Part shown: positions 7,635 through 32,606 of the stretch, piece by piece
Numbering within the stretch: position 1 is the first letter of the stretch
How the letters are laid out: every line of letters begins with the position of its first letter
Source of the DNA: Parcubacteria group bacterium CG2_30_36_38
Lineage (GTDB): Bacteria; Patescibacteriota; Patescibacteriia; UBA2591; CG2-30-36-38
Assembly: GCA_001873465.1 (NCBI GenBank)
Contig: MNZE01000036.1
Span: 1 to 35,596, forward strand
Direction: 5' to 3'
Length of the DNA stretch: 35,596 nt
Program-made: the position numbers and the translations under genes
The notes under the pieces: model-generated
The model's input: only the letters and a program-made list of their open reading frames with translations
Databases searched by the model: none
Told to the model about the DNA's origin: nothing

Positions 7635-7663
7635 TTGACTTATTTTAGTAAAACCTATAAAAT
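7635..7663 (+). promoter_or_regulatory. Near-consensus promoter of rpsA-ftsH, positioned for a leaderless transcript
   Basis: TTGACT-17nt-TAAAAT, then 7 nt (aaacttt) before the ATG at 7671. There is no SD. Confidence 0.55.
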
Positions 7664-7670
7664 AAACTTT

Positions 7671-8732
7671 ATGGCTACAGAAGAAAAAAAAGAAGAAGAA
7701 AATAAAAAAATAAAATTCCCGCTCCGAGATGGAGATTTGGTCGAAGGAACAATTATTGCTCTTAAACAAGACGGAATCTATTTAGATATTGGAGGTCTTT
7801 TAACCGGCATTATCAGGGGCCCTGAAGCAATAGACGAATCGGGCAAACTAAGAAGCGCTAAAAAAGGGGACAAAATGGAAGCAACTGTCATAGAGGTAGA
7901 AAATGAAAAAGGATTGGTCGAGCTTTCGCTGCGTTACGCTAGCCATAAAAAGGCCTGGGACAGCTTAAAAGAAATCTTTGGAAAAGGCGAGGTTGTTAAG
8001 ATAAAAATTGTTGATGCTAATAAAGGTGGCTTAATCGTCAAATATAAAAATTTTCAAGGATTTTTGCCGGCTTCTCAACTTCAACCCCAGCATTATCCGC
8101 GCGTCGAAGACGGAGATAAAATGAAAATTTTAGAAAAACTTAAAGCTTTTGTCGGCAAAGAACTAGACGCAAAAATTATTACTCTTGAAGAAACAGAAGA
8201 AAAAATTATCTTTTCAGAAAAACAAATCCAGCCAGAAGAGGAAACAATAAAATATAAAAAGGGGGATATAGTCGAGGCAAAAGTTACTGGTCTGGCTAGT
8301 TTTGGCGCTTTTGTCACTTTTGATAAAGGAGGAGAGGGACTAATTCATATTTCTGAATTAGATTGGAAAAGAATAGAAAAACCTGAAGAGGCAGTAAAAA
8401 TAGGACAAGTCGCTAAGGCAAAAATTATTGATTTTGCCAAAGATGGCAAAGCTGCTTTATCAATAAAACAACTGCGTGATGATCCTTGGAAAAAAATAAA
8501 TGAAAAATATCATGTTGACCAAATAGTCAAAGGCAAGGTTCTGAAGATCAACCCCTTCGGCTTGTTTGTTTTACTTGATTCTGATATCCATGGTTTATGC
8601 CATGTTTCTGAGCTTGATCTTAAAGAAGGAGAAAAAATAGAATCAAAATTCAAGCTAGGAGAAGAAAAGCAGTTTAAAATTATCTCTCTAGAACCAGAAG
8701 ACCATCGCCTTTCCTTGTCTCCCTCTAAATGA
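7671..8732 (+). CDS. rpsA: 30S ribosomal protein S1 (four S1 RNA-binding domains)
   Basis: Repeated S1-domain signatures: G.lVEGTI..., [26 protein letters not shown]...[23 protein letters not shown]...GLCHVSEL. I prefer the ATG at 7671 because the TTG at 7635 lies inside the -35 box. Confidence 0.88.
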
Positions 8733-8745
8733 TTATTTAATTTCT

Positions 8746-11700
8746 ATGAAAACTTTAATAAAAAACTTTTTACTTTTCCTGATCATTTTTTTAATTATTT
8801 CTGGACTATTTAGTCTCTTTATCTCTCCCTCAGCCCAGGTTGAAGAAATAGCCTTGGGCCAATTTATCTCTTTAGTTAACAATGAACAAGTAAAAAAGAT
8901 AGTTGTTGAAGGAAACAAAATTAATTTATCCCTTATTGATGGACAAAAAAATTTTGTTTTTAAGGAGGAATCTGAAACTCTGGGAGATATCTTCAAAAAC
9001 TACGAGGTCCCTAAAGAAAAAATAGAAAAAATAACAGTTAAAGTCAAACTGCCTTCAAGCGGTTTTTGGCTTAATGTGCTCCCCTTTTTAATCGGCGCCA
9101 TTCTCATGATTGGCTTTTTTATTTTTTTAAATAGACAATTACAAAAAAGCGGGGCTGAGGTAATGAGATTTGGTGAAAGCGGAGTGAGAGAAGTTCAGCC
9201 AGATGAACAAAAAAATAGATTAACCTTTCGCGATGTCGCTGGGGTACGTGAAGCAAAAGAAGAGCTTAAAGAAATCGTTGATTTTCTTAAAAAACCCGAA
9301 AAATTTATTAAACTTGGGGCAAAAATCCCTAAAGGAGTGTTGCTCATTGGCATGCCGGGCACAGGAAAAACACTCCTGGCTAAAGCAGTAGCCGGCGAGG
9401 CAAATGTGCCTTTTTTCCATATCTCCGGCTCAGAATTTGTCGAGCTTTTTGTCGGGATTGGCGCTTCTCGCGTGAGAGACGCTTTTAAAAAAGCGAAAAA
9501 AAGCGTTCCGGCTATTTTATTTATTGACGAGCTTGACGCTATTGGTCGTTTACGCGGCGCTGGACTCGGCGGGTCTCATGATGAAAGGGAGCAAACTTTA
9601 AATCAAATTTTAGTTGAGTTAGACGGATTTGAACCAAATATCGGCTTGGTAGTGATGTCCGCCAGTGTTGCCTCAAACACTCCGGTATTGGTTAAACAAA
9701 ACGGATCGTACAATCTCTCGCCTATTTCTGAAATTATTGATCCTTACTACGAAAACAATGAAGAAGGAATCGAAAAAAAAGTTAAAGGGCTTGAAATACT
9801 TGGATTCGAAAATAATCCTGGGAAAAAATTTGCTAATCACGATTTGCGCTTTCAAAATAGCGCTTTTAAAAAAGTAAATAGTGTTTATCGTCACAAAGTA
9901 AACGAAATCTATGAAATAGAATATTGGGGAGGAAAAATAAAAACTACCGGAAATCATTCTCTTTTTGTCCGTACCCGAGGAAAAATAGAAAAAAAATTAG
10001 TTTCAGAAATGAAACCGGGCGATATTTTGGTTAATCTGCCCTTAAAAACAAACAGAACGAATAAAAAATTTAGACAAATTAGAGCTCATAAATTTAATGA
10101 GAATCTCAACCTTGATCTGCCTGTGTGGCAACCTTTATTTAGAAACTTCCAAAACGTTGAAAACGCTTATCAATATGCTTTAATCCACACTAATAATATT
10201 TCTCAATCTCAACTGGGTAGAATGTTTGGAATTTCTCAAAGAACGATTGGCAAGTGGCAACAGGGAATATGCGAACCGCGAGAACTATCCAGAAATTATT
10301 ATCAACATCAATACTTGCTACCTGAAAAGGTCAGAGTAACTCCGGAGCTAATGCGTCTTTTTGGATATTATGTAGCTGAAGGATATGCTCGGAAAGAAGT
10401 CGATTTTTGTTTGAATATTAAAGAAAAAGAGTTTATTAAAGATATTAAATTCTTAATGGAAAAAATATTTAATCTCGTCCCCAGTCGTAAAAGATATATC
10501 ACCTCTAATGCTATTAATATTATCTATTATTCAAAACCATTGGCTGAATTTTTTAGCTATCATTGCGGCAAGGGAGCGCATCATAAACATATTCCAAGTT
10601 TTTTATTTGAAGCTCCAAAAGAATATTTTATTGAATTTTTGAAAGGGTACGCAGCAGGAGATGGCCATGAAGATCAGAAAAAAAGATTAGAATTAACCTC
10701 GGTGAGTAAACAGCTAATTTTAGAATTAAATTGGTTGTCTGCTATGCACGGATTTAAAAGTTATATTAGTCATTTTCAGGCGAAGGAAGGAAGAAAAATT
10801 AAAGATGGCAAACCTTTATCTGAAACTAAGGCTTACCGTTTAGGATTTGGAAAAAGTCAGAATCCCTTAAAGACTTCTGATGAAATGAGAATAAAAGGCA
10901 ATGTCTGTCGAGTAATTATTAAAAAAATTAAGAAAGTTCCCTACCATGGCTATGTTTATGATTTCTGCGGTTGTGAGAATGAAGCATTTTTTGCTGGTGA
11001 AAATCCAATTTTAGCCCATAACACGAATCGCCCAGATGTTTTGGATCCTGCCTTATTGAGACCCGGTCGATTTGACAGAAAAGTAATTCTTGATATGCCT
11101 GACGTGAAAGATAGAGAAGAAATTTTAAAAATTCACGCCAAGAACAAGCCGTTAGCTACTGATATAAAATTTGAAGAAGTCGCCCAAAGAACCCCCGGTT
11201 TCTCTGGTGCCGACTTAGCCAACCTGATGAATGAAGCCGCTATTTTAGCCGCTAGAAGAAACAAAAATGCAATTAGCCAACCGGAGCTGCTGGAAAGTAT
11301 TGAAAAAGTAATTTTAGGTCCTGAGAGAAAAAGTTATATTTTGGGAGAGCAGGAAAAGAAAATTGTTGCCTTTCATGAAACTGGTCATGCAGTTGTGACT
11401 TATGGTCTACCTTCTTGTGGGCCGGTCAGAAAAATTTCCATCATTGCTAGAGGCAGAGCAGCGGGTTATACCATTAAAACCCCCAAGGAAACTAAATACC
11501 TTTATTCAAAAACAGAGCTCCAAGATAACCTCTCTTCTTTACTGGGCGGTTATGCGGCAGAAAAAATTTTCTTTAATGAAGTCACCACCGGCGCGGCCGA
11601 GGATCTGAAAGAAGTAACTAAAATTGCCAGGAAGGCAGTAACTAAATATGGGATGAATGAATCATTGGGTCCCAGAACGTTTGGTAAGGAAGAAGAGCTA

Positions 11701-11925
11701 ATCTTTTTAGGCAAAGAATTTACTGAGGAAAAGGACTATTCAGAAAAAACAGCGCAGATAATTGATAAAGAAGTAGCCAAAATTATTGATTTCTGCTATA
11801 ATAAAGCCTGTGAAATTATCAAAAAAAATAAGAAAAGGGTTGAAGAAGTGGCTGATTACTTAATAAAAAAAGAAACGATAGAAAAAGAGGATTTTGAAAA
11901 ATTAATGAAACAATCACATGCTTAA
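8746..11925 (+). CDS. ftsH: ATP-dependent zinc metalloprotease FtsH precursor, interrupted in-frame by an intein (1059 aa; about 606 aa after splicing)
   Basis: Two N-terminal TM helices; Walker A GMPGTGKT; Walker B ILFIDELD; [19 protein letters not shown]; zinc site HETGHA. The 453-aa insert lies between VVMSA and TNRPD. Confidence 0.95.
9664..11022 (+). mobile_element. FtsH intein with LAGLIDADG homing-endonuclease domain (453 aa, Ser1 ... His-Asn / Thr+1)
   Basis: Block A is [10 protein letters not shown] and block B is [10 protein letters not shown]. The LAGLIDADG motifs are [11 protein letters not shown] (about nt 10351-10390) and [11 protein letters not shown] (about nt 10633-10670). 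Block F is [15 protein letters not shown] and block G is NPILAHN, followed by T. The boundaries are codon-aligned with the ftsH frame. Confidence 0.9.
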
Positions 11926-12829
11926 AAGAATTTATAAAGAGGCTTTTAATTTAGCATGGAAAAATCCCTTTCTTTGGCTTTTTGGCTTTTTAGCCGCTTT
12001 TTTAGCCAATAATGAAATAATCGTTCTCTTTCTTAATTCTTCTAAAATACTGCAAATAGGCGGGCTGCCTATAAACCTTTCTTATTTAAGGGGAAATTAT
12101 TTATTAATTTTTAAGTCTTTACAAAAGTTCATTTTTTTAACCCCGACAAATTTACTCATCTTTCTTTTTGTTATTTTTATTAGTTTATTTGTCTTTTATT
12201 TGTCATCTCTTTCTCAAGGGATTTTAATTAAAAATACAGCTACCAAGAATAAGTTGTTAAAAAACAGTTTAAAAGGAGTGGATAAGTACTCTTTGAAAAT
12301 TTTCTTTTTAAATTTATTAGTCTTAGTCTTTGATTCTTTTCTTATTTATCTCTTTATCTTTAAATTCAACCTCAACGCAAATCCTGCCCTTGCTTTTACC
12401 CTGGTTTTCTTTATACTTTTAATTATCCTTGTTCTTTCTTTTATCGCCCGCTATTCCATCTGTTTCATTTGTTTAGAAGAGAAACCTCTTTTTTCTTCTT
12501 TAAAAGAAGCGACAAAGTTTTTCTTTAAAAACTGGTTGATTTCTGTCGTTAACTCTTTTATTATTTTTCTATTTAACATTCTTTTAGGGCTGCTTCTCTT
12601 TCTTATAGGCCTGAATTCTTATTATTCTTTCTCCATTACAGCCCAATTTTTAGGTTATTTTAACCTTACTAAGACTATTTGGTTTTTAATGTTCTTTAAT
12701 TTAACCTTAATAATTTTTGTTTTTGTTTTTTTTCTTTCTATTTTTTCTGCTTGGCAATATTCTGCCTGGGGGCTGCTTTATCAAAGTATAAAAAGTGGAA
12801 AAAAAGAAGAAAAAAAATCTAATATTTGA
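11918..12829 (+). CDS. Hypothetical polytopic membrane protein
   Basis: 303 aa with 6 or more long hydrophobic segments. It overlaps the ftsH stop by 8 nt (translational coupling). Confidence 0.6.
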
Positions 12830-12915: not shown

Positions 12916-14031
12916 ATGAAACTAATCTGTTTACAAGAAAAGCTTTTTCCTATTTTATCTGCCGTTTCGAGGATAGCTTCTTTAAATAAATCTGGCCTGC
13001 CTATTTTAAATAATATTTTATTATCCACAGAGAATAGCTATTTAAAGCTTGTAGCGACCAATCTAGAAATAGCCATTGAAGGAAAATTAAGAGCAAAAAT
13101 AGAAAAAGAAGGAAATATTACCATTCCTTCTCAAATTTTTAATAATTATATTAGTTCTTTGCCCAAAGAAAATATTAATTTAGAAGTAAAAGATAATGAA
13201 CTTTTAATTAAAACGAAGAGCCAAAAAGCAAAAATAAAAGCGATTTCTTCTGAAGAATTTCCAATTATCCCTCAACCAATAAAAAAAGAAAAAATTGTTT
13301 TAAAATCAGACGATTTTAAAAAAGCGCTCAAACAAACTTTATTTGCCATAGGAGAGAAAGAAGCAAGGGTTGAAATTAGCGGCGCCTTGTTCTCTCTGGC
13401 GGGAAAAAACTTAACCATTGTCGGCACAGACAGCTATCGTCTAATAGAAAAAACGATTAAAGTTAAAGAAAACGACTATCAGGGGAAAGAATTAATCATT
13501 CCTAAAAAGACGCTTGAAGAAGTTTTAAGAATTATTAAAGACGAAGACAAGGAAGATATTTTTATTTACCCCTCTGAAAATCAAATCCTTTTTTCTTATC
13601 AAGACTTTAGCCTTGTTTCGCAAATTATAAGCAGCGATTTTCCTAATTATAAAGAAATTATCCCCAAAAATTTTAAAACAAAAATTATTTTTAGAAAAGA
13701 GAGTCTTTTGCAAATAATTAAAACAGCCAGTCTTTTTGCTAGATCGGGGATTAATGATTTAAAAATTAAATTTTTACCAAAAGAAGAAAAAATAATCATT
13801 TCTTCTTTAAACAACCAGGTTGGCGAGAATGAAGCGGAGCTAAAAGTAGAAATTTCTGGCAATAACAACGATGTCTCTTTTAATTATCAATATTTGTTAG
13901 ATGGATTATTAAACCTAGGAGGAGATGAATTGTCCCTTGAAATTATTGATAGTAATTTGCCGGGAGTGATAAGATCAACTTCTGACGATTCTTTCTTATA
14001 TTTAATTATGCCTATTAAATCAAATGAATAA
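12916..14031 (+). CDS. dnaN: DNA polymerase III beta sliding clamp
   Basis: 371 aa. The N-terminus (MKLICLQEKLFPILSAVSRIAS...LPILNNILL) and the three-domain length match DnaN, as do ATNLEIAIE, GTDSYRL and the C-terminal LIMPIK. Confidence 0.9.
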   Translation: MKLICLQEKLFPILSAVSRIASLNKSGLPILNNILLSTENSYLKLVATNLEIAIEGKLRAKIEKEGNITIPSQIFNNYISSLPKENINLEVKDNELLIKTKSQKAKIKAISSEEFPIIPQPIKKEKIVLKSDDFKKALKQTLFAIGEKEARVEISGALFSLAGKNLTIVGTDSYRLIEKTIKVKENDYQGKELIIPKKTLEEVLRIIKDEDKEDIFIYPSENQILFSYQDFSLVSQIISSDFPNYKEIIPKNFKTKIIFRKESLLQIIKTASLFARSGINDLKIKFLPKEEKIIISSLNNQVGENEAELKVEISGNNNDVSFNYQYLLDGLLNLGGDELSLEIIDSNLPGVIRSTSDDSFLYLIMPIKSNE

Positions 14032-21847: not shown

Positions 21848-22351
21848 ATGGTTATTTTAGGCATTGATCCGGGAGTGGCAACTACAGGTTATGGCGTGAT
21901 AAAATTTTCTGAGAGCGGGGAATCTTGTATTTTTGTTTATGGCATTATTTCTTCAAGCGCTCGTGAGCGTTTTTCTAAAAGACTTTTAAAAATTTATCAG
22001 GAATTAAAAAAGATTATAAAGAAATATAAACCTGATCTTTTGGCAATAGAAAATATTTATTTCGCTAAGAATGCCAAAACGGCGATAAATGTTGGCAAAG
22101 CGATTGGTGTGATTTTACTGCTTGGCGAAGAGAAAAAAATTCCTTTTCTAGAACTTACTCCCCTGCAAGTTAAACAGTCTCTCACTGGTTTCGGCCGGGC
22201 AGACAAAGCCCAGGTCCAGAATATGGTGAAACGACTTCTTGGGCTCTCTAAAATTCCTAAGCCTGATGACGCGGCTGATGCCCTAGCCATGGCTTTGACT
22301 GCTCATCAATATAATAAAACCTATGAAAAAAATAAGGCTTGCTCATCTTAG
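21848..22351 (+). CDS. ruvC: Crossover junction endodeoxyribonuclease RuvC
   Basis: 167 aa: ILGIDPGVATTGYGVI, LAIENIYFAKN and PDDAADALAMAL are the catalytic acidic residues and motifs. Confidence 0.9.
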   Translation: MVILGIDPGVATTGYGVIKFSESGESCIFVYGIISSSARERFSKRLLKIYQELKKIIKKYKPDLLAIENIYFAKNAKTAINVGKAIGVILLLGEEKKIPFLELTPLQVKQSLTGFGRADKAQVQNMVKRLLGLSKIPKPDDAADALAMALTAHQYNKTYEKNKACSS

Positions 22352-23786
22352 TGCTGAAGTTTCTCCTTATTCTCAAACAGGCGGGCTGGCAGACGTGACG
22401 AGATCCTTGCCAAGGGCGCTTTGCAGAATGGGGCATCAGGTCATTGTTATTACCCCTTTTTATAAATTTATTAGAAAACAAAACCTACCGCTTGAAGATT
22501 TATCGCAAGCGGTTTCTTTATCTTTTGCAGATTATCATTTTAATTTTTCCTTTAAGAAAGTGATTAGTGAGGATAAATACCCTGTTTTTTTTGTTGTTCA
22601 AGATGAACTATTTTCAGAAAGAGACGTAATTTATAAAGCTCCAGACGATGCTTTGCGCTTCCTTTTTTTTGATTTAGCAGCCTTGGAACTGTTAAAAATT
22701 CTTAAATTTTCACCTGATGTCCTACATTGTCATGATTGGCACACGGGATTAGTGCCATATTTTCTCAAAACTCTTTATAAAGAAGGTCCTGAACTTTCAA
22801 AAATTGCTACTCTTTTCACAATTCATAATTTATCTTTTCAAGGTGCTTTTAATTGGTGGGAAGTCCCTAGAGAAAAAAAAGATGATGGCGGAGATATCTC
22901 GAAAATGAAAGAAGACAATTTTCATTGGATTAATTTTATGAAAAGAGGAATTATGTCTGCCGAGATAATTAATACAGTGAGCGAGCGCTATGCTCAGGAG
23001 ATTCTAACCAAGGAATTTGGCTGTGGCCTTGAAGGCTTCCTGCAAGAAAGAGAAGAAAGATTGTTTGGAATCATTAATGGTATTGATTATAAAGTTTTTA
23101 ACCCGAAATTTGATCCCGATGTTCACGTTAATTATGACGCTGATTCATTCGAGAGAAAAACTGAGAATAAAATTGCCCTGCAGCAAGAGTTTAACTTGAC
23201 AGTTGATGAGAGAACTCCTATGATAGGTTTGGCTCACCGTTTAACTGAACAGAAAGGGATTGAATTATTAATTAAAATTCTTGAGGAGCTTTTAAAATTA
23301 AACGTTCAAATAGTAATAGTCGGAACAGGAGAAGAGTCCTATGTAGAAGCGCTTAAAAAATTTAAAAAGAAACACACTAAAAAAATTGTTTTTATTACGC
23401 CATTTGAGGAATCTTGGGCAAGAAAAATTTATGCTGCTTCAGATATTTATCTTCTCCCTTCGCGATTTGAGCCCTGTGGCTTATCGCAACTTATTAGTTT
23501 AAGATATGGCTCTGTGCCGGTAGTGCGCGCTGTTGGTGGTTTATCTGACACAGTGACCAATTACAATCCGGGGACAGGGAGGGGGAACGGATTTGTTTTT
23601 CGTAATTATAGTGAGATAGAGCTTCTAGCGGCGATTGTGAGGGCTTTAGAAAATTATAAAAGAAAAAGCGCTTGGAAAAAATTAGCTTGTCGGGCAATGA
23701 AAGAGACATATTCTTGGAATTTGCCGGCGAAAAAATACGTGGCTTTATATAAAAAAGCACTCAAGAAAAAAATGAAAAATCTGTAA
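22323..23786 (+). CDS. glgA: Glycogen/starch synthase (GT5), paralog 1
   Basis: 487 aa: HLSAEVSPYSQTGGLADV (the KTGGL-type motif), HCHDWHTGL, TIHNLSFQG and PSRFEPCGLSQLISLRYGSVPVVRAVGGLSDTV. Confidence 0.9.
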   Translation: MKKIRLAHLSAEVSPYSQTGGLADVTRSLPRALCRMGHQVIVITPFYKFIRKQNLPLEDLSQAVSLSFADYHFNFSFKKVISEDKYPVFFVVQDELFSERDVIYKAPDDALRFLFFDLAALELLKILKFSPDVLHCHDWHTGLVPYFLKTLYKEGPELSKIATLFTIHNLSFQGAFNWWEVPREKKDDGGDISKMKEDNFHWINFMKRGIMSAEIINTVSERYAQEILTKEFGCGLEGFLQEREERLFGIINGIDYKVFNPKFDPDVHVNYDADSFERKTENKIALQQEFNLTVDERTPMIGLAHRLTEQKGIELLIKILEELLKLNVQIVIVGTGEESYVEALKKFKKKHTKKIVFITPFEESWARKIYAASDIYLLPSRFEPCGLSQLISLRYGSVPVVRAVGGLSDTVTNYNPGTGRGNGFVFRNYSEIELLAAIVRALENYKRKSAWKKLACRAMKETYSWNLPAKKYVALYKKALKKKMKNL

Positions 23787-23799
23787 TTTTATATTTCTT

Positions 23800-25287
23800 A
23801 TGTATTGGATTAATTTTCTCCACATTTATCAACCGAGAGGACAGGCGAAAGATATTTTTGACCGAGTTGTCAATGAGTCTTATAGGCCTTTAATTAAAGG
23901 CTTGAAAGAAAATAAAAGTTTAAAATTAAATTTAAATATTAATGCCTGCTTAACAGAGCGCCTTTTTAAAGACGGTTATCAAGATGTGGTTTCTGGTCTT
24001 AAATTTTTAGCGCAAAGAGGACAGGTAGAGTTTACTGATTCCGCGGCTTATCATGCTTTTCTGCCACTTTTGCCAGAAACAGAAATTAAGAGGCAAATTA
24101 ATCTTAACCGAGAAATCAACAGAAAATATTTTGGTAAAATTTATAACCCATCTGTTTTTTTCTCGCCAGAAATGGCTTATAACAAAAAGATTGCGAGAAT
24201 AGTTAAGAACTTAGGTTATCAATGGTTGATTCTCGACGAAATTGCTTACAATGGAAAATTGAATCAAGCCAGTTGGTTCTGTTTTTATGAGATCGAAGAG
24301 ACCCCGGGGCTGAAAGTTCTTTTTAAAAACAGAAGAATTAGTAATTTGCTGAGCAACGCCCTGACGCGCAATATTGGTTCCTTTAAAAAAGAAATTGGAC
24401 CAATTGTTAAAGAAGACGCTTATTTATTGACGGCTATGGACGGTGAAACATTTGGTCATCATCGGCCTGGGTTGGAGAAATTTCTTTTTCAAGTTTTATC
24501 AGCAAAGGCCTGGAAACATCTTTTTATCTCTGAAGCCTTAAAGCACTTCCAGTCTGGCGGAAAAATCAGCCCTCTTGATTCTACTTGGACGATTGAAGAG
24601 GAGGATCTAAAAGAAAAAAAGCCATATAAGCTTTGGCATTCAGCTGATAACCCTTTGCAGAAATTGCAATGGCAATTTAGCTATTTTGTCATTAAAACCG
24701 TGGAATCTTTAAATCATAAGACAGTCGACTACCAAAGGGCGAGGAGAAAACTCGATCAATCTCTTGAATCCTGCCAGTATTGGTGGGCTTCTTTATACTG
24801 GTGGAGTTTAGAGATGATCGAAGCATCCAGTTATAATCTAAGACAAATCATTTTTAATCTTAAAACATCTACTTCGTTCAAAAAGAAAGCAGAAAAATTT
24901 TATCGTCAGGTTCTTGATCTTGCTTTTAAGTGGCAAAGAACCGGCCTGGTCAGAGAATTTCATAAACAAGAAAAAAAATGGCAGGCGGTTCCTTTTAAGG
25001 AAAGAACAAATCCAGAGTGGTATAACCAAATGATTTTAGAATTTGAGGCAGAGATGAGAAGAGCGGCGAAGGACGAGGAGTATGAAAGAGCGATTAAATG
25101 GCGAGATGCGATTATTAAATTAAAAAGCGGCGCGGACGTTTATGACGTACTGCATGTAGTTAATGAGCTTTGGACAGTTAGGAGAATTCCCTCTTGCAAG
25201 CCATTTCTTAAGTATAAAAAATTTTCACGCTTTGCTAAAGAATATTTTTTGCCCTTTAATTATAAACCGAAATACTGGAAAAAATAA
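23800..25287 (+). CDS. Glycoside hydrolase family 57 protein with C-terminal UVR motif
   Basis: 495 aa. YWINFLHIYQP is the GH57 region 1. AMDGETFGHH carries the nucleophile Glu. The C-terminal EAEMRRAAKDEEYERAIKWRDAIIKLK is a UvrB/UvrC-type UVR helix hairpin. Confidence 0.8.
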   Translation: MYWINFLHIYQPRGQAKDIFDRVVNESYRPLIKGLKENKSLKLNLNINACLTERLFKDGYQDVVSGLKFLAQRGQVEFTDSAAYHAFLPLLPETEIKRQINLNREINRKYFGKIYNPSVFFSPEMAYNKKIARIVKNLGYQWLILDEIAYNGKLNQASWFCFYEIEETPGLKVLFKNRRISNLLSNALTRNIGSFKKEIGPIVKEDAYLLTAMDGETFGHHRPGLEKFLFQVLSAKAWKHLFISEALKHFQSGGKISPLDSTWTIEEEDLKEKKPYKLWHSADNPLQKLQWQFSYFVIKTVESLNHKTVDYQRARRKLDQSLESCQYWWASLYWWSLEMIEASSYNLRQIIFNLKTSTSFKKKAEKFYRQVLDLAFKWQRTGLVREFHKQEKKWQAVPFKERTNPEWYNQMILEFEAEMRRAAKDEEYERAIKWRDAIIKLKSGADVYDVLHVVNELWTVRRIPSCKPFLKYKKFSRFAKEYFLPFNYKPKYWKK

Positions 25288-25294
25288 TAAAGAT

Positions 25295-26380
25295 ATGATG
25301 AAAAGAAAAAGGATTCCCTTTAAAAAAATCAAAAAATTGCTAGATCCGGATTTTATAAATAAATTTTTTAATAAGCGCTACAGGCGATATTATAAAGAAG
25401 CGAAAGGATGTCGTTTTTTAGGAATTAAAAAAATAAAGCGATTTGCAGGAGGAAAATCGATTTCCGCTTCTTATTTTTTAAAATTAAAAATTGGCAAGGA
25501 GGAAAAAATAAAAATAATCGACGGCCGGGCTCGTCAACGTCTCTTTACTGACGAGAATAATCCTCAAAGGCATTATCTAGTCTTGAAGCATCTCTATACT
25601 AAAAATTTTAGCCGTGAAGTGCCGAGGCCCCTTGATTATCAAAAGCCATACAATCTTCTTCTTTACGAAGAAGTTGAGGGAGAGGCGTTGCAGCAGAAAT
25701 TGATGAGAGGTGAAATAAGTTTTGTTTTAAGCTTTATTCCTAAAATTGTTTTTTGGTTGAGGAAACTTCATCGGGAAAATTTATTAAAAGGCAGACTGGC
25801 GGCTCTGGAAGGAAGCAACAGAATTCTCCTGCGAGACAAAAAAGTAGAGGCGAAAGAAATGCGTCATGCTCTCTTTTTAACCAAGAAATTCTATCCTCAA
25901 GGAACACTTTCGGTCAAAAAAGTCGTAGAGAAATTAAATAAATTGCGGCGAAAGAAAAAAAATTGGTTTTTGGAAAAAGAAAATTATGCTCTTTGTCATT
26001 ATGATGTTCATTTCGGCAATTTTTTAACTAGCGATCGCCAATTGAAAGTTATTGATTTTAGTGATGCTTGTTTTTATGATCCGTTGGCAGACCTCGCTTG
26101 TTTTTTGGTTCAAACTGAATCAATGCTTGAATATTATCAGAGAAAAAAAGCAAAAATAATTTTGCCAAGAATTAAGAATCAAATTATTAATCTATATTTT
26201 AAACGCCAACCAGAGAGAAGAGAGATTTTTCGACTTAAATATTTTGAGATCCGGCGTCTCGTTTCGATGTTTACTAGTTTAATTTTTGTTGAGGGCGAAG
26301 AAAAAAATAAAAAATTGATGTTAGATGATTTTAAGAAGAAAATATCATTAAAATTTAAGCAAATAGAAGGAACTTTATGA
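25295..26380 (+). CDS. Aminoglycoside-phosphotransferase-fold (APH/choline-kinase-like) kinase
   Basis: It has the catalytic loop LCHYDVHFGNFL (HxDxxxxN) and the metal-binding VIDFSDACFYDPLADLA. I prefer the ATG at 25295, 8 nt after the GH57 stop, over the track start at 25163, which would overlap GH57 by 125 nt. Confidence 0.75.
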   Translation: MMKRKRIPFKKIKKLLDPDFINKFFNKRYRRYYKEAKGCRFLGIKKIKRFAGGKSISASYFLKLKIGKEEKIKIIDGRARQRLFTDENNPQRHYLVLKHLYTKNFSREVPRPLDYQKPYNLLLYEEVEGEALQQKLMRGEISFVLSFIPKIVFWLRKLHRENLLKGRLAALEGSNRILLRDKKVEAKEMRHALFLTKKFYPQGTLSVKKVVEKLNKLRRKKKNWFLEKENYALCHYDVHFGNFLTSDRQLKVIDFSDACFYDPLADLACFLVQTESMLEYYQRKKAKIILPRIKNQIINLYFKRQPERREIFRLKYFEIRRLVSMFTSLIFVEGEEKNKKLMLDDFKKKISLKFKQIEGTL

Positions 26381-27870
26381 AAATTTTATTTATTGCCTCA
26401 GAACTTAACCCCTTGGCTAAAGTTGGTGGCTTAGGAGACGTGGCTGGCGCCCTGCCTTTAGCTTTGAAAAAATTGGGGGCGGATATTAGGATCGCCTTGC
26501 CTAAATATGGGGTGATTGATGAAAAAAAATATCCTTGTGAATTGGTTGCCAAAGATATTAAAATAAAGATTGGTCGAGAAGAAGAAAAAATCAATCTTTA
26601 CAAAACTGAATTAGGCGAAGAAAAAGTAATTGTTTATTTAATTGATAATAAAAAATATTTAGGCGAGGACGGAGTTTATTTTGAGAAAACCGCTTTTTGC
26701 GGCTCTTTTGCCGAAATAAAGCGGTTTTTATTTTTTACCCATGCTGTTTTTTCTTTAATAGAAAAACTTGATTGGCAGCCGGAAATAATTCATTGTAATG
26801 ATTGGCATACGTCATTTTTGCCGGTCTTCCTAAAAATGAAATCAAAAATAAAAGATAAAAAATTAAAAACATTGTTAACTATTCATAATTTAGCCAATCA
26901 AGGGAGATGGAACGCCCAGGAAATTTTTGATTTTTTAGGACTTAAAGGCGATGAAACAGAAAGCCTTGGAAAAAGACAATTAGGTTCATACGGCGAAGAT
27001 CTTAATTTAATGCAGCAAGGGATTTTAAACGCTGATTTTATTAATACGGTGAGTCCAACTTACGCCAGAGAAATTCTGACCAAACCTTATTTTGGCCGTG
27101 GGTTTAAAGAAACTTTATTAAAAAGAAGAAATAATTTTGTTGGAATTCTAAACGGCTTAGATACAGAAACTTTTAATCCGGAGACAGATCCTTATATAAA
27201 AAGAAATTATTCTTTTAGAAATCCAGAAATAAAAAAAGAGAATAAAATCTATTTGGAAAAAAAGTTGGGTTTAAAAGTCGATCCTGATGTCCCTCTTTTT
27301 GCCTTGGTCTCAAGGCTGACCTTCCAGAAGGGGATTGAGTTAGTGGTCAATGGTCTAAAAAATCTTAGAGATTTTGATTTTCGAGCAGTTTTTTTAGGCG
27401 TTGGTGAAGAGCGATATGAGGAATCTATTAAAAATTTAGCCAAAAAATTTCCGGGCAAAATTGCAGCTGAGATTAAATATGATTCTCAATTAGCTCAGGA
27501 AATTTATGCTGGAGCTGATTTTTTTCTGATGCCATCAAAATTTGAACCGTGCGGCTTGACTCAATTGATTGCTTTGCGTTATGGCGCTATCCCGATTGTC
27601 AGAAGAGTTGGCGGACTGGCTGACACAATTAAAAACATAAGGGTTAAAAAGAGATTTTTAAATTTTTTAAAAAGAATAGAAGGCAATGGTTTCGTCTTGC
27701 GGGAATATGATGCAGACAAGTTTGTTAAGGTTTTAAAAAGAGCAACTTCTTTTTATCAAAATAAAGATCTATGGCGTAGATTGCAAATAAAAGCAATGGA
27801 AGAAGACCATTCCTGGCAACAGTCAGCCGGGGAATATTTAGAGCTTTATGAAAAAATATTGCAAACTTAG
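26377..27870 (+). CDS. glgA: Glycogen/starch synthase (GT5), paralog 2
   Basis: 497 aa: MKILFIASELNPLAKVGGLGDV, HCNDWHTSF, TIHNLANQG and PSKFEPCGLTQLIALRYGAIPIVRRVGGLADTI. There is a 4-nt start/stop overlap with the kinase gene. Confidence 0.9.
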   Translation: MKILFIASELNPLAKVGGLGDVAGALPLALKKLGADIRIALPKYGVIDEKKYPCELVAKDIKIKIGREEEKINLYKTELGEEKVIVYLIDNKKYLGEDGVYFEKTAFCGSFAEIKRFLFFTHAVFSLIEKLDWQPEIIHCNDWHTSFLPVFLKMKSKIKDKKLKTLLTIHNLANQGRWNAQEIFDFLGLKGDETESLGKRQLGSYGEDLNLMQQGILNADFINTVSPTYAREILTKPYFGRGFKETLLKRRNNFVGILNGLDTETFNPETDPYIKRNYSFRNPEIKKENKIYLEKKLGLKVDPDVPLFALVSRLTFQKGIELVVNGLKNLRDFDFRAVFLGVGEERYEESIKNLAKKFPGKIAAEIKYDSQLAQEIYAGADFFLMPSKFEPCGLTQLIALRYGAIPIVRRVGGLADTIKNIRVKKRFLNFLKRIEGNGFVLREYDADKFVKVLKRATSFYQNKDLWRRLQIKAMEEDHSWQQSAGEYLELYEKILQT

Positions 27871-28613: not shown

Positions 28614-28921
28614 CGGGAAAGCCATTAGTTTGGATTTTGATTATTGCTATTATGGCGACGATTTTCATTTTTTGGCTTCGTAATTTAAATCTTCTTTTTT
28701 TTCAGTCATCATCAGTAAAAGAAGAGCCGCTTTTTTCTTTGTTTAAAGAGGGGTACGACGAGACAAGAGATATTTTTCGTGAGTTGGGCAAGCGGCTCGA
28801 AGGAACGCAGATTGCTTCTGTCTCCTCTACTTCTTCTGTTTCCTCTTCAGAGGAGGCCTTGACCGAAGAGCAAATAAAAATTTTAAAAGAAAAAATTTTA
28901 GAGAAATATGAAAAAAAATAA
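28610..28921 (+). CDS. Hypothetical membrane-anchored protein
   Basis: 103 aa with one N-terminal TM helix, a Ser-rich linker and a charged C-terminus. It overlaps both neighbours (4 nt and 14 nt). Confidence 0.5.
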   Translation: MTGKPLVWILIIAIMATIFIFWLRNLNLLFFQSSSVKEEPLFSLFKEGYDETRDIFRELGKRLEGTQIASVSSTSSVSSSEEALTEEQIKILKEKILEKYEKK

Positions 28922-31900
28922 ACCCCGACGCCTAAAGGGGTCGGGGCTCCGACCGAGAGCGTCGGAGGAAATTATAAAAAAAGAAGCTATAAATGCTTCA
29001 ATTAAAGAAGAAATGCAATCTTCTTATTTAGATTACGCCATGTCAGTGATAGTCTCGCGTGCCCTGCCCGATGCCCGGGATGGTCTGAAACCAGTTCAGA
29101 GAAGAATTTTATACACTATGCATAGAATGGGATTAAGCTCAGAAGCCAAGTTTAGAAAAGCGGCAGCCGTGGTTGGCGATACCCTTGGTCGTTTCCACCC
29201 ACATGGCGACATTTCCGTTTATAATTCCATGGTCAGGATGGCTCAAAATTTTTCTTTGCGCTATCCGTTAGTTGAAGCGCAGGGCAATGTGGGTTGTTTC
29301 ACGGCTGATACTAGGGTGAAACTTACAGACGGCAGAGATTTATCGTTCGCAGAGCTAGTGAAAGAGTACAAAGAGGGAAAGAGAAACTTTACCTTTACGG
29401 TTGACGAGAATGGGACGGTGAAGATAGCAGAGATAAAAAATCCCAGGATGACAAAAAAGAACGCAGAAATAATGAAAGTTGTTTTAGATAATGGGGAAGA
29501 GATAAAATGTACTCTTAGCCATAAATTTATGCTGAAATCTGGAGCAAAAGCAGGATTTGTTTATAAAGAAGCTAGAAATTTAAAACCAGGAGATTCTCTT
29601 ATGCCAGCATACTTTAGATTTTCTACCGGAGAAGACGATCCTAATATGATTGGTTATAATATGATTCTCCAGCCGAAATTAAATTTTTGGAATTTTGTTC
29701 ATATCCTTTCAGACAGTTGGAATATTGAGAATAAGATATATGAAAGATCAAGGGGAAGAATTAGACACCATCTTGATTTTAATAAGTTAAACAATAACCC
29801 AGAAAACATTCAAAGGATGGGCTGGAAAGAGCACTGGCAATCTCATTATAATTTGACTTCTCTAAGACATATCAATGACGAAAATTATAAAGCTAAACTC
29901 GCAGAAGGTAGGAGAAAATTTTGGGCGGAAGAAAAAAACAGAAAAATTTTTTCTCAAAGAATAAGAGGAAGAAATATTTTAAATTGGAAAAAGAAAGAAT
30001 ATCGTGAACGAATGAGAATTTTTTTAAGCGAAGTTAACAAAAAATATTTTAGAGAGCATCCTGAGGCTATTCAGAGAATCAGCAGAACAGCATCAAAAAC
30101 AATGAGAAGATTGTGGCAAAATCCAAAATATAAAAGATTATTTCATGAAAAGATTGTAGAGAGCAATAGAAACAGGAAGGGGAAGACAAATTCAAGTGGC
30201 AAAAAGAAATTCTTAAAAATATGTCATTATCTTAATGATAGAAATATAATTTTAAATAAAGATAACTTTGAGAAAGCAAGAAAGAGCGTATTCGGAATAA
30301 AAAGTTTTACTAGTTGGAACTTGGGCATTGCGAAACATTACAACAGAGATATTAATTTATTGTCATCTAAGATTAATAGAAATCACAAAGTAGTAAGAGT
30401 AGAATTTTTAAAAGAGTTTGCAAATGTTTATGACTTGACAATAGAAAAAACGCATAACTTTGCTTTATCTGCCGGTGTTTTCGTCCACAACTCGATTGAT
30501 GGTGATCCACCAAGCGCCATGCGTTATCTTGAGGCAAAATTATCTAAAGCAGGCGAAGAAATGTTGATTGATCTTGAAAAAGAAACGGTTTCTTTTGTGC
30601 CTAATTATGATGGGACACAACAAGAACCGACGGTTCTGCCGGCCGGCATACCCAATCTTCTTTTAAATGGCGCGATGGGCATCGCGGTTGGTATGGCTAC
30701 CAGCATCCCGCCTCATAATTTAAATGAGACTTGTGACGCTCTCGTTTACTTACTTCTTCACCCTGAAGCAGAAATAGACGAGATTTTTCAATTTGTTAAA
30801 GGGCCAGACTTCCCAACTGGCGGAATCATTTTTAATCTTAAACAAATTAAAGAAGCTTATGCCGCTGGACGAGGGGCGGTAACAGTAAGGGCTAAGACAG
30901 AGATAGAAGAAGGAGAAAAAGGCGAGACTATCATTATTAAAGAGATCCCCTATCAGATTAATAAAGCAGAGCTGCTTCTTAAAATAGCTGATTTGGTAAA
31001 AGAAAAACGCCTAGAAGGCGTGCGAGACATCCGGGACGAATCAACGGAGGAAGGGGTGAGAGTGGTGATTGAATTAAAAAAAGACGTTTCAGCCGAGAAG
31101 ATTTTAAATCAGCTTTTTGAATTAACCAACCTGCAAACAAACTTTAATCTTAATTTTGTAGCGCTTGAATCAGGTATCCAGCCAAGACTTTTCGGCTTTA
31201 AAGAATTATTAGTTAGTTATCTTTCTTGGCGGAAAGAGGTTGTTAGAAAAAGAACAGAGTTTGAGCTGAAGAAGACAGAAGAGCGGCTGCATATTTTAGA
31301 AGGGTTTCTTATTGCTTTAGTCAATATTGACAAGGTCGTTTCCTTAATTAGGCACTCTAAAGACAGAAAAGAAGCAAAGGACGGCTTGATGAAAAAGTTT
31401 AAGCTTTCAGGTCGCCAGACCGAAGCCATTTTAGAAATGAGGCTCCATCAGTTAGCTGGGCTGGAGCGGTTGGAGATAGAGAATGAAGCAAAAGAAAAGA
31501 AAAAACTAGAGAAAGAATTAAAAATTTTATTAGCTGATCCTAAAAAAATTTTTGCCAAAATTAAAGAGGAACTGAGGATTTTAAAAGAAAAATATCCAGA
31601 AAAAAGAAGAACAGAAATCAAAGAAAAAGGGGTTGATATATTGAAAGAAGAAGACTTAATTATTGACAAGCCAGTGCTTATTGCCATCACAGTTGATGAT
31701 TATATAAAAAGATTGCCGCCCGATGTTTTTAAAGTTCAGATGCGCGGAGGTAAGGGCATTTCAGGTTTTGAAATTAAAGAAGAAGATAAAATTAAAAAAA
31801 TTCTTTTTACCAACTTGCATTCAGACATCTTGTTTTTTACCAATAAAGGAAAAATATTTTCTTTAAAAGCCTATGAGATTCCTGAAACAAGCAGGGAAAG

Positions 31901-32606
31901 CAAAGGAAAGGCGTTGATCAATTTTTTATCTTTGAGTCCCGGCGAAATGGTTTTAGAAATTCTCAGAGCAAAGTCAATCGCTGATTTTTCTTATTTGATT
32001 ATAGCGACAAAATTTGGTATAATAAAAAAAATTGCGACAAAACTTTTAACCAATATCAGGAAATCGGGCTTAAACATTATCAGACTTAAAAAAGACGATT
32101 CTTTAGTAGAGGCAATTTTCTGCGAGAAAACTGACGAAATATTTTTAATCTCGTCCAGCGGTCAATCTATTCGTTTTAAAGAAGAAAATGTGCGGCCAAT
32201 GGGCAGAACAGCGACGGGCGTACGAGGCGTTACACTCAAAAAAGATGATTATTTAGAAGGGCTGGCGAGGACTCGCAAAGACAAAATAAAAGAAAATTAT
32301 CTTTTAATTATTACGGAGAACGGTTTTGGGAAAATGAGTCCTCTTAAAGAATATCGTTTGCAGACACGAGGCGGTAGTGGGGTAAAGACGGCAAAAATTA
32401 CTGCTAAGACCGGAAAAATAATTGCTTCTTTAATTCTTGAAGAGAAAGAAAGAGAAGAGAAAGACTTGATACTTATTTCAAGGCAAGGCGTTCTTTTGCG
32501 TCTCCCCTTGGCGCAGGTGCCAAAGATGGGGCGGCAAACGCAGGGCGTCAAATTGATGAGATTTAAAAAAGAAGGAGATAGAGTTGCTTCAATGGTTATA
32601 GTGTAA
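28908..32606 (+). CDS. gyrA: DNA gyrase subunit A precursor, interrupted in-frame by an intein (1232 aa; about 833 aa after splicing)
   Basis: [37 protein letters not shown] and the catalytic-Tyr motif [10 protein letters not shown] are present. The C-terminus has beta-pinwheel repeats ([28 protein letters not shown]). The insert lies between GNVG and SIDGD. Confidence 0.95.
29295..30491 (+). mobile_element. GyrA intein with HNH-type endonuclease domain (399 aa, Cys1 ... His-Asn / Ser+1)
   Basis: Block A is [13 protein letters not shown] and block B is [11 protein letters not shown]. The HNH motif is [30 protein letters not shown] (about nt 29755-29848). Block F is [17 protein letters not shown] and block G is VFVHN, followed by S. 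The boundaries are codon-aligned with the gyrA frame. Confidence 0.9.

Follow-up and report, generated by a model that had tools for sequence, protein, structure and literature searches.

The most conserved nucleotide-binding motifs of P-loop ATPases are known to serve as conserved homing sites for inteins, as reported for MCM, RFC and DnaB in a 2015 survey (PMC4760082), which also places LonB among the top archaeal intein hosts (Table 2), and inteins of CDC48 that occupy orthologous sites in bacteria or archaea have been mentioned elsewhere (PMC10710043). Here, we describe an intein that interrupts FtsH, an ATP-dependent membrane protease, encoded in a DNA stretch of 35,596 nucleotides (nt) from Parcubacteria group bacterium CG2_30_36_38 (contig MNZE01000036.1, positions 1 to 35,596 of the forward strand; the whole stretch is hereafter called the window). 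MCM, RFC and DnaB all act in replication, whereas FtsH falls under protein quality control (COG category O), which is poorly represented in the survey (PMC4760082). Our analysis of sequence and modelled fold suggests, with a probability that we put at roughly 0.88, that the insert is a class 1 bifunctional intein, made of a splicing (HINT) domain, a nested LAGLIDADG endonuclease and a small helical insert resembling a helix-turn-helix (HTH), and that it would both splice and home. FtsH can thereby be counted among the proteins whose core ATPase motifs harbour inteins.

Among the described systems, the Thermococcus kodakarensis DNA polymerase intein 2, PI-PkoII (2cw7/2cw8), is the best solved relative by both sequence and fold. 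The sequence match to 2cw7 (E-value 2.9e-23) falls in three collinear pieces corresponding to HINT-N, the LAGLIDADG domain and HINT-C, the Foldseek TM-score is 0.66 (query-normalised), and the two inteins share the HINT plus LAGLIDADG architecture and the chain end (Y)AHN. In contrast, the host of PI-PkoII is an archaeal family B DNA polymerase, the identity is ~21%, and the stretch that separates HINT-N from the endonuclease (residues 124-269) is longer than its counterpart in the FtsH intein (residues 127-220). The inteins found at the sensor-1 motif of archaeal CDC48/VAT-type ATPases belong to the same family as the FtsH intein (43-56% identity) and have the junction (I/V)(A/G)A^SVTGDTP...LLHN^TNR at the homologous position (a caret marks each splice junction hereafter), but they reside in another AAA+ family and another domain of life, in a D1 or D2 module, and form their own sub-clades within the clade of this insertion site (site A). 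Inteins at a second FtsH position (site B; GVGA^SRVRD) have the same host, the same intein family (41-44% identity), the same domain order and Ser1, although their site lies between Walker A and Walker B, their downstream nucleophile is Ser+1 instead of Thr+1, and they form a separate clade. Finally, the Thermococcales LonB inteins also lie within the P-loop/AAA+ module of an ATP-dependent protease, but their archaeal host family is unrelated, and the likeness noted here concerns the type of host.

By its sequence, the host is FtsH, an ATP-dependent zinc metalloprotease that is essential in well-studied bacteria. The precursor is encoded by a single open reading frame (ORF; 8746..11925; 1059 amino acids (aa) plus stop) that runs in one frame through N-extein, intein and C-extein, as given by the ORF list and by the Pfam and TIGR01241 matches; all ftsH and intein features given below lie on the forward strand. 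The NCBIfam FtsH equivalog TIGR01241 (FtsH_fam) scores 746 bits (cut-off 600) over two stretches of the window protein, and the Pfam domains follow one another as FtsH_ext (aa 9-70), AAA (198-305), Intein_splicing (350-759), LAGLIDADG_3 (534-603), AAA_lid_3 (806-848) and Peptidase_M41 (866-1053). The parts by which FtsH is recognised were all found, namely a membrane/FtsH_ext N-terminus, an AAA module with Walker A, Walker B and the second region of homology, and the HEXXH motif of the M41 protease. The N-extein (aa 1-306; 8746..9663) comprises FtsH_ext and the transmembrane region, carries Walker A GMPGTGKT (nt 9349-9372) and Walker B ILFIDELD (nt 9514-9537), and ends with GLVVMSA, while the C-extein (11023..11925; 300 aa plus stop) starts with Thr+1 (nt 11023-11025), at the head of sensor-1 and the second region of homology (nt 11023-11079), and continues with the AAA lid and the M41 protease, whose HETGH lies at nt 11374-11388. 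We take the Asn of the split motif to be sensor-1 and the downstream RPGRFDR to hold the arginine fingers, as in FtsH and AAA proteins generally.

Between these exteins, the intein (453 aa; precursor aa 307-759; 9664..11022) extends from SVASNT to ILAHN, with Ser1 at nt 9664-9666 and Asn453 at nt 11020-11022, and its removal restores the exteins exactly. The junctions read GLVVMSA^ on the N-terminal side and NPILAHN^TNRPDVLDP on the C-terminal side, and the exteins joined in silico give a product of 606 aa, which aligns end-to-end with Thermotoga maritima FtsH (7tdo; also 2ce7; E-value 1.9e-187) and is gap-free at the junction. A metagenomic FtsH whose site is empty (P0022), with 65% identity over 349 extein residues, is equally collinear and gap-free at this place. 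These two alignments place the insertion after the last Ala of a beta-strand (Ala306) and before the Thr-Asn of the sensor-1 motif AATNRPD, and the reconstructed intein-less ftsH site reads CCAAATATCGGCTTGGTAGTGATGTCCGCC before the junction and ACGAATCGCCCAGATGTTTTGGATCCTGCC after it. The intein has a guanine-plus-cytosine content of 33.2%, compared with 38.3% for the exteins and 35.5% for the window, and thus shows no strong compositional anomaly. An intron was considered and rejected because the frame is continuous and stop-free through both junctions, and the window gene is one intact ftsH, neither over-long nor fused. An earlier inspection of the letters (hereafter the sequence-only reading) had called an in-frame insert of 453 aa at 9664-11022, whose removal would leave a normal FtsH of 606 aa. 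Its coordinates and lengths proved exact, and the alignments to T. maritima FtsH and P0022 bear out the restored product, the latter being a comparison with an intein-less ftsH of the kind that it had proposed.

The HINT domain is encoded in two parts. The N-terminal part (intein aa 1-130; 9664..10053) is beta-rich in the model and aligns with PI-PkoII residues 11-123 and with TFIIB mini-inteins, which were also matched by sequence; it carries the N-terminal block with Ser1 (nt 9664-9693; Ser1 codon AGT) and block B with T95 and H98 (nt 9940-9969), in which KTTGNHS occupies intein aa 93-99. The C-terminal part (intein aa 401-453; 10864..11022) carries block F with D433 (aa 431-445; nt 10954-10998) and block G NPILAHN (aa 447-453; nt 11002-11022). 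Pfam Intein_splicing (PF14890) gave 60.1 bits against a gathering score of 35.8 (E-value 2.9e-16), and NCBIfam intein_Nterm (TIGR01445) gave 25.0 against a cut-off of 24.5; both Intein_splicing and LAGLIDADG_3 exceed their gathering scores in 9/9 family members. An intein-only alignment of nine full-length relatives (A2) has S1, T95, H98, E239, D333, D433, H452 and N453 among its invariant residues. In a larger census of 71 inteins (those extracted from fetched loci, plus that of the window), T95, H98, E239 and D433 show no exception, and D333 shows a single one (70/71). The full residue set of class 1 is therefore found in the window copy, i.e., Ser1, T95 and H98 of block B, D433, H452, N453 and Thr+1. 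A class 3 intein (WCT) or a bacterial intein-like domain was rejected on the basis of Ser1, Asp433 at block F position 4, the +1 nucleophile and the conserved host site; it is the Asp at this position together with Ser1 that sets the insert apart from class 3, in which a Cys at block F position 4 serves as the branch nucleophile and position 1 carries none.

The modelled fold agrees with this anatomy. The AlphaFold2 model of the intein (alignment of 67 sequences) has a mean predicted local distance difference test score (pLDDT) of 95.0 and a predicted template modelling score of 0.92, and the top Foldseek ranks against the PDB are solely intein endonucleases, i.e., PI-PkoII (2.8e-24), the TliVMA and PhoVMA inteins, PI-PfuI and PI-SceI; mini-inteins and free LAGLIDADG enzymes take the lower ranks, and the fold matches include I-DmoI and I-Tsp061I. 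The motif set goes far beyond chance, and the insert is a genuine class 1 intein that is probably competent for splicing. The sequence-only reading had listed a complete series of canonical intein blocks and a cysteine-free Ser1/Thr+1 junction: each of the listed motifs was recovered at its position, both junction residues are present, and the search that it had suggested with splicing and LAGLIDADG profiles returned Intein_splicing and LAGLIDADG_3 above their gathering scores.

The LAGLIDADG homing-endonuclease domain (intein aa 221-400; 10324..10863) matches Pfam LAGLIDADG_3 (PF14528; 38.6 bits against a gathering score of 22.5, E-value 1.3e-9) and aligns with PI-PkoII residues 270-405. It has the two acid-tipped helices and the alpha-beta-beta-alpha-beta-beta-alpha pseudo-dimer of a two-motif monomeric enzyme, with motif 1 at aa 229-242 (nt 10348-10389; acid E239) and motif 2 at aa 322-335 (nt 10627-10668; acid D333). 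Both acids are retained across the family (E239 in 71/71, D333 in 70/71), and the Lys at position 349 is variable (44/71). Moreover, the mean pairwise identity among the 71 inteins is 0.55-0.61 in the endonuclease domain versus 0.54-0.57 in HINT-N, which means that conservation of the endonuclease domain equals or exceeds that of HINT-N.

HINT-N is joined to the endonuclease by a linker that includes a small helical insert (intein aa 131-220; 10054..10323), in which an HTH-like motif of XRE character was located at aa 179-201 (nt 10198-10266). Pfam HTH_3 matches this insert weakly (E-value 0.012-0.017, 16 bits against a gathering score of 23) in 3/9 members, while the signature residues W198 (70/71) and T194 (69/71) are nearly constant. 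When modelled alone, the insert forms a small, confident helical unit (core pLDDT 96-98), whose Foldseek matches are mostly HTH DNA-binding domains (DeoR, P22 c2, HigA, HipB), none of them significant (best E-value 0.55). The insert may reasonably be taken for an accessory DNA-binding module. Note that one homologue is annotated by the Joint Genome Institute as a 'transcriptional regulator with XRE-family HTH domain'.

The splicing chemistry that we propose follows the established class 1 mechanism. In this scheme, ftsH would be translated as the 1059-aa precursor, an N-O acyl shift would occur at Ser1, the chain would be transferred by transesterification onto the Thr+1 hydroxyl, Asn453 would cyclise with the assistance of His452, and a final O-N shift would yield the 606-aa FtsH and a free intein of 453 aa. 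The released intein would act as a pseudo-dimeric LAGLIDADG enzyme that cuts intein-less ftsH alleles at the conserved DNA encoding AA^TNRPD, and the cut allele would receive a copy of the intein through repair, i.e., homing. Splicing and DNA cleavage are thus both what the retained residues lead us to expect. With sensor-1 cut off from a core beta-strand by the insert, the ATPase is very probably inactive before splicing, and from the insertion point it can soundly be inferred that FtsH activity depends on splicing.

The family to which the intein belongs is patchily distributed over many genomes and bound to specific sites. An intein-only query against 5.8 billion proteins gave 66 matches, of which the top ~50 are FtsH fragments from metagenome-assembled genomes (MAGs) labelled as Patescibacteria (Parcubacteria, Minisyncoccia, Doudna-, Peregrini-, Uhr- and Levybacteria); archaeal AAA proteins are also among the matches, and several of these proteins (P0029, P0043, P0048) have CDC48_N and CDC48_2 domains. 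An exhaustive scan of 50%-identity representatives recovered 53 cluster representatives at E <= 1e-30, including a protein of 1499 aa with two intein copies (P0068). When one genome per GTDB species was scanned, relatives were found to be encoded in 233 genomes; the best is 68% identical, and the window's own genome must therefore lie outside this set. The nearest relatives are 65-68% identical at the protein level.

Site A, the site of the window intein (A(A/G)^S...HN^TNRPD), is occupied in FtsH of many Patescibacteria and accounts for 43 of the 71 extracted inteins, and its equivalent is the sensor-1 motif of D1-like and D2-like modules in archaeal CDC48/VAT-type ATPases (MAG labels Woese-, Aenigmat-, Micr- and Nanoarchaeota, Bathyarchaeia, Thermoplasmatales and Methanomicrobia). 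Site B (FVGVGA^S...HN^SRVRDLF) is occupied in FtsH of Patescibacteria, Eisenbacteria, Blastocatellia, Gemmatales and Chloroflexi; in the window, the corresponding place, defined from homologues, is empty (GIGA^SRVRD; nt 9460-9480). Five ftsH genes (L006, L025, L042, L057, L061/P0003) are occupied at both sites by the two sister lineages, as is P0068, which gives precursors of ~1500 aa. In addition, the ftsH of a Blastocatellia MAG (L073; JAKEHD010000528.1) was observed to carry a site-B family intein together with an unrelated Cys1/Cys+1 LAGLIDADG intein at a third place, immediately before Walker B (KKNAP^CLTGDT...ICHN^CIIFVDEID), which brings the intein insertion sites of FtsH in nature to at least three.

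In a neighbour-joining tree of the inteins (midpoint-rooted and calculated without bootstrap or support values), the site-B clade stands apart from the site-A clade, archaeal sub-clades lie beside and among the FtsH inteins in the site-A clade, and the window intein falls together with those of two MAGs of Parcubacteria (L001 and L008). The inteins thus cluster by insertion site, as expected for homing. The target DNA consensus of FtsH site A and that of archaeal site A agree at most non-wobble positions, whereas site B differs in sequence. Related FtsH genes include both occupied and empty sites, and together with the site-specific clades and the degenerate copies (see below), this forms the pattern of a homing element. 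On balance, we favour the view that one intein lineage has passed between FtsH genes of bacteria and CDC48-type genes of archaea at their shared sensor-1 site, with a sister lineage at the second FtsH site, and that FtsH would be an unrecognised multi-site host. A phage origin or vector is unsupported, as a tblastn search of 50,697 phage records returned one weak, partial LAGLIDADG match (28.8% identity, 34% of the query).

Several observations weigh against a splicing and homing intein in the window. The invariance of S1 and of H452/N453 in the 71-intein set follows partly from the search patterns used for extraction, and in block F (ENEAFF) another residue stands in place of the histidine that many inteins have there, although this is conserved throughout the family. 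Furthermore, a second ftsH copy without an intein may exist elsewhere in the genome, as the data consist of one window. Finally, some relatives are decaying, namely a mini-intein without endonuclease (P0045), an intein with an in-frame stop (L067) and a copy whose host gene is frameshifted (L001), so that the activity of any single copy is not guaranteed.

These decaying relatives bear above all on the alternative that survives best, in which the intein still splices while its endonuclease is inactive or decaying. The element would then have lost its mobility and reached the end of the homing cycle as a fixed passenger, inherited vertically. Such a state may be suspected from the copies P0045 and L067, from an intein shortened to 403 aa (L055) and from the variable Lys at position 349, but it is an unlikely one for the window copy: both LAGLIDADG acids are kept here and in 70-71 of the 71 inteins, the endonuclease is as conserved as HINT, and related FtsH genes show both occupied and empty sites. 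A second alternative would make the intein a conditional switch rather than a purely selfish element, with splicing modulated by a cue (temperature, nucleotide or substrate; redox-independent as the intein is Cys-free) and acting as a post-translational on-switch for a membrane protease. Conditional splicing has been documented for other inteins, e.g., a recombinase intein (PMC5238726), and circumstantial points in favour of a switch are the position of the intein in a catalytic motif of an essential-type protease, its retention across many Patescibacteria and its relatives in archaeal CDC48. We nevertheless regard a switch as improbable, because the splice junctions lack cysteines, so that the known redox and zinc switches are not directly applicable, and because patchy presence and absence with degenerate copies fits a selfish element better.

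It is even harder to defend the idea that the insert is permanently retained in FtsH as an inactivated intein co-opted for a structural or DNA-binding role. Every class 1 splicing residue is kept, in the core of the ATPase the insert comes between a beta-strand and the sensor-1 Asn, a position at which solved FtsH structures have no insertion, and FtsH orthologues with an empty site are otherwise collinear; a retained domain is thus very improbable. Lastly, a chimeric join of ftsH with an intein-bearing gene of another genome might be feared in metagenome-type assemblies of uncultured low-GC organisms, the window's apparent kind, which are sometimes chimeric, but the reading frame is kept across both junctions, which coincide exactly with a single codon boundary in a conserved motif, and identical FtsH-intein architecture and junctions recur in dozens of independent assemblies, some on contigs >50 kb, by which an assembly artefact is effectively refuted.

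A splicing and homing intein in FtsH is therefore the reading that we retain, and it concerns a host that is under-described. In the intein literature searched, we found no description of an FtsH intein, and the papers that contain both terms treat inteins in other genes. FtsH is likewise absent from the top-15 host tables and text of the 2015 survey (PMC4760082), the supplementary tables of which may hold a rare entry. The sequence-only reading had stated that FtsH is not among the classical intein hosts, and this stands for the literature searched but not for sequence databases, which hold relatives in 233 GTDB species representatives, with 43 of the 71 inteins at the same site; the case is thus much less singular than that reading implied.

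In public annotation, some relatives are tagged 'intein/homing endonuclease' or 'LAGLIDADG family homing endonuclease', and mis-calls of ftsH genes with an intein are frequent. None of the first-pass homologues exceeded 792 aa, compared with ~1050-1500 aa for full precursors. Split genes were suspected behind this ceiling of ~800 aa and were disproved at one locus (L002:3038-6244), in which an intact ORF of 1068 aa is merely called short: it is recorded as a 747-aa product that starts inside the intein and is named 'LAGLIDADG family homing endonuclease' (P0008). In the nearest relative, Parcubacteria bacterium Greene1014_47 (L001:3157-4014; VMGR01000003.1), ftsH is annotated as two ORFs, and its N-extein is frameshifted and lacks Walker B (LFSTAK/AIGRTRG); either the gene has become a pseudogene or the assembly is in error here. 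Intein-bearing genes of this kind are often broken up by automated pipelines or given the name of the endonuclease, and the finding in the window mainly affects annotation.

The window copy is an ordinary intein type, common in uncultured lineages, in an under-described host, and it leaves the understanding of intein function unchanged. The family-level picture (three FtsH sites, doubly occupied genes and the sharing between FtsH and CDC48) offers more than this single copy. Indeed, one intein family is common to Patescibacteria FtsH and to the CDC48-type ATPases of DPANN-type archaea, both being groups with very small genomes, and this sharing provides a useful data point for intein ecology and inter-domain gene flow. 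In addition, a Cys-free Ser1/Thr+1 intein could interest protein engineers.

The window also encodes a second intein, in gyrA (28908..32606, forward strand; 1232 aa). This GyrA intein (399 aa; aa 130-528; nt 29295..30491) is of the Cys1/Ser+1 type, with the junctions GNVG^CFTADT...VFVHN^SIDGD, and scores 75-80 bits with Pfam Intein_splicing; its Lys/Arg-rich central region of ~250 aa gave no Pfam endonuclease match. No relation between the GyrA and FtsH inteins was found by BLASTP (best E-value 1.1). Directly upstream of ftsH lies the gene of a protein with four S1 domains (7635..8732), and the same S1-ftsH neighbourhood occurs in L001. Downstream, a gene whose start overlaps the ftsH stop by 8 nt (11918..12829) encodes a hydrophobic protein of 303 aa without a Pfam match, probably a multi-pass membrane protein, and is followed by dnaN (12916..14031). 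Further along, a glycogen-type cluster (22323..27870) consists of two GT5 starch-synthase-like genes, a GH57 gene with a UVR motif and an APH-like kinase.

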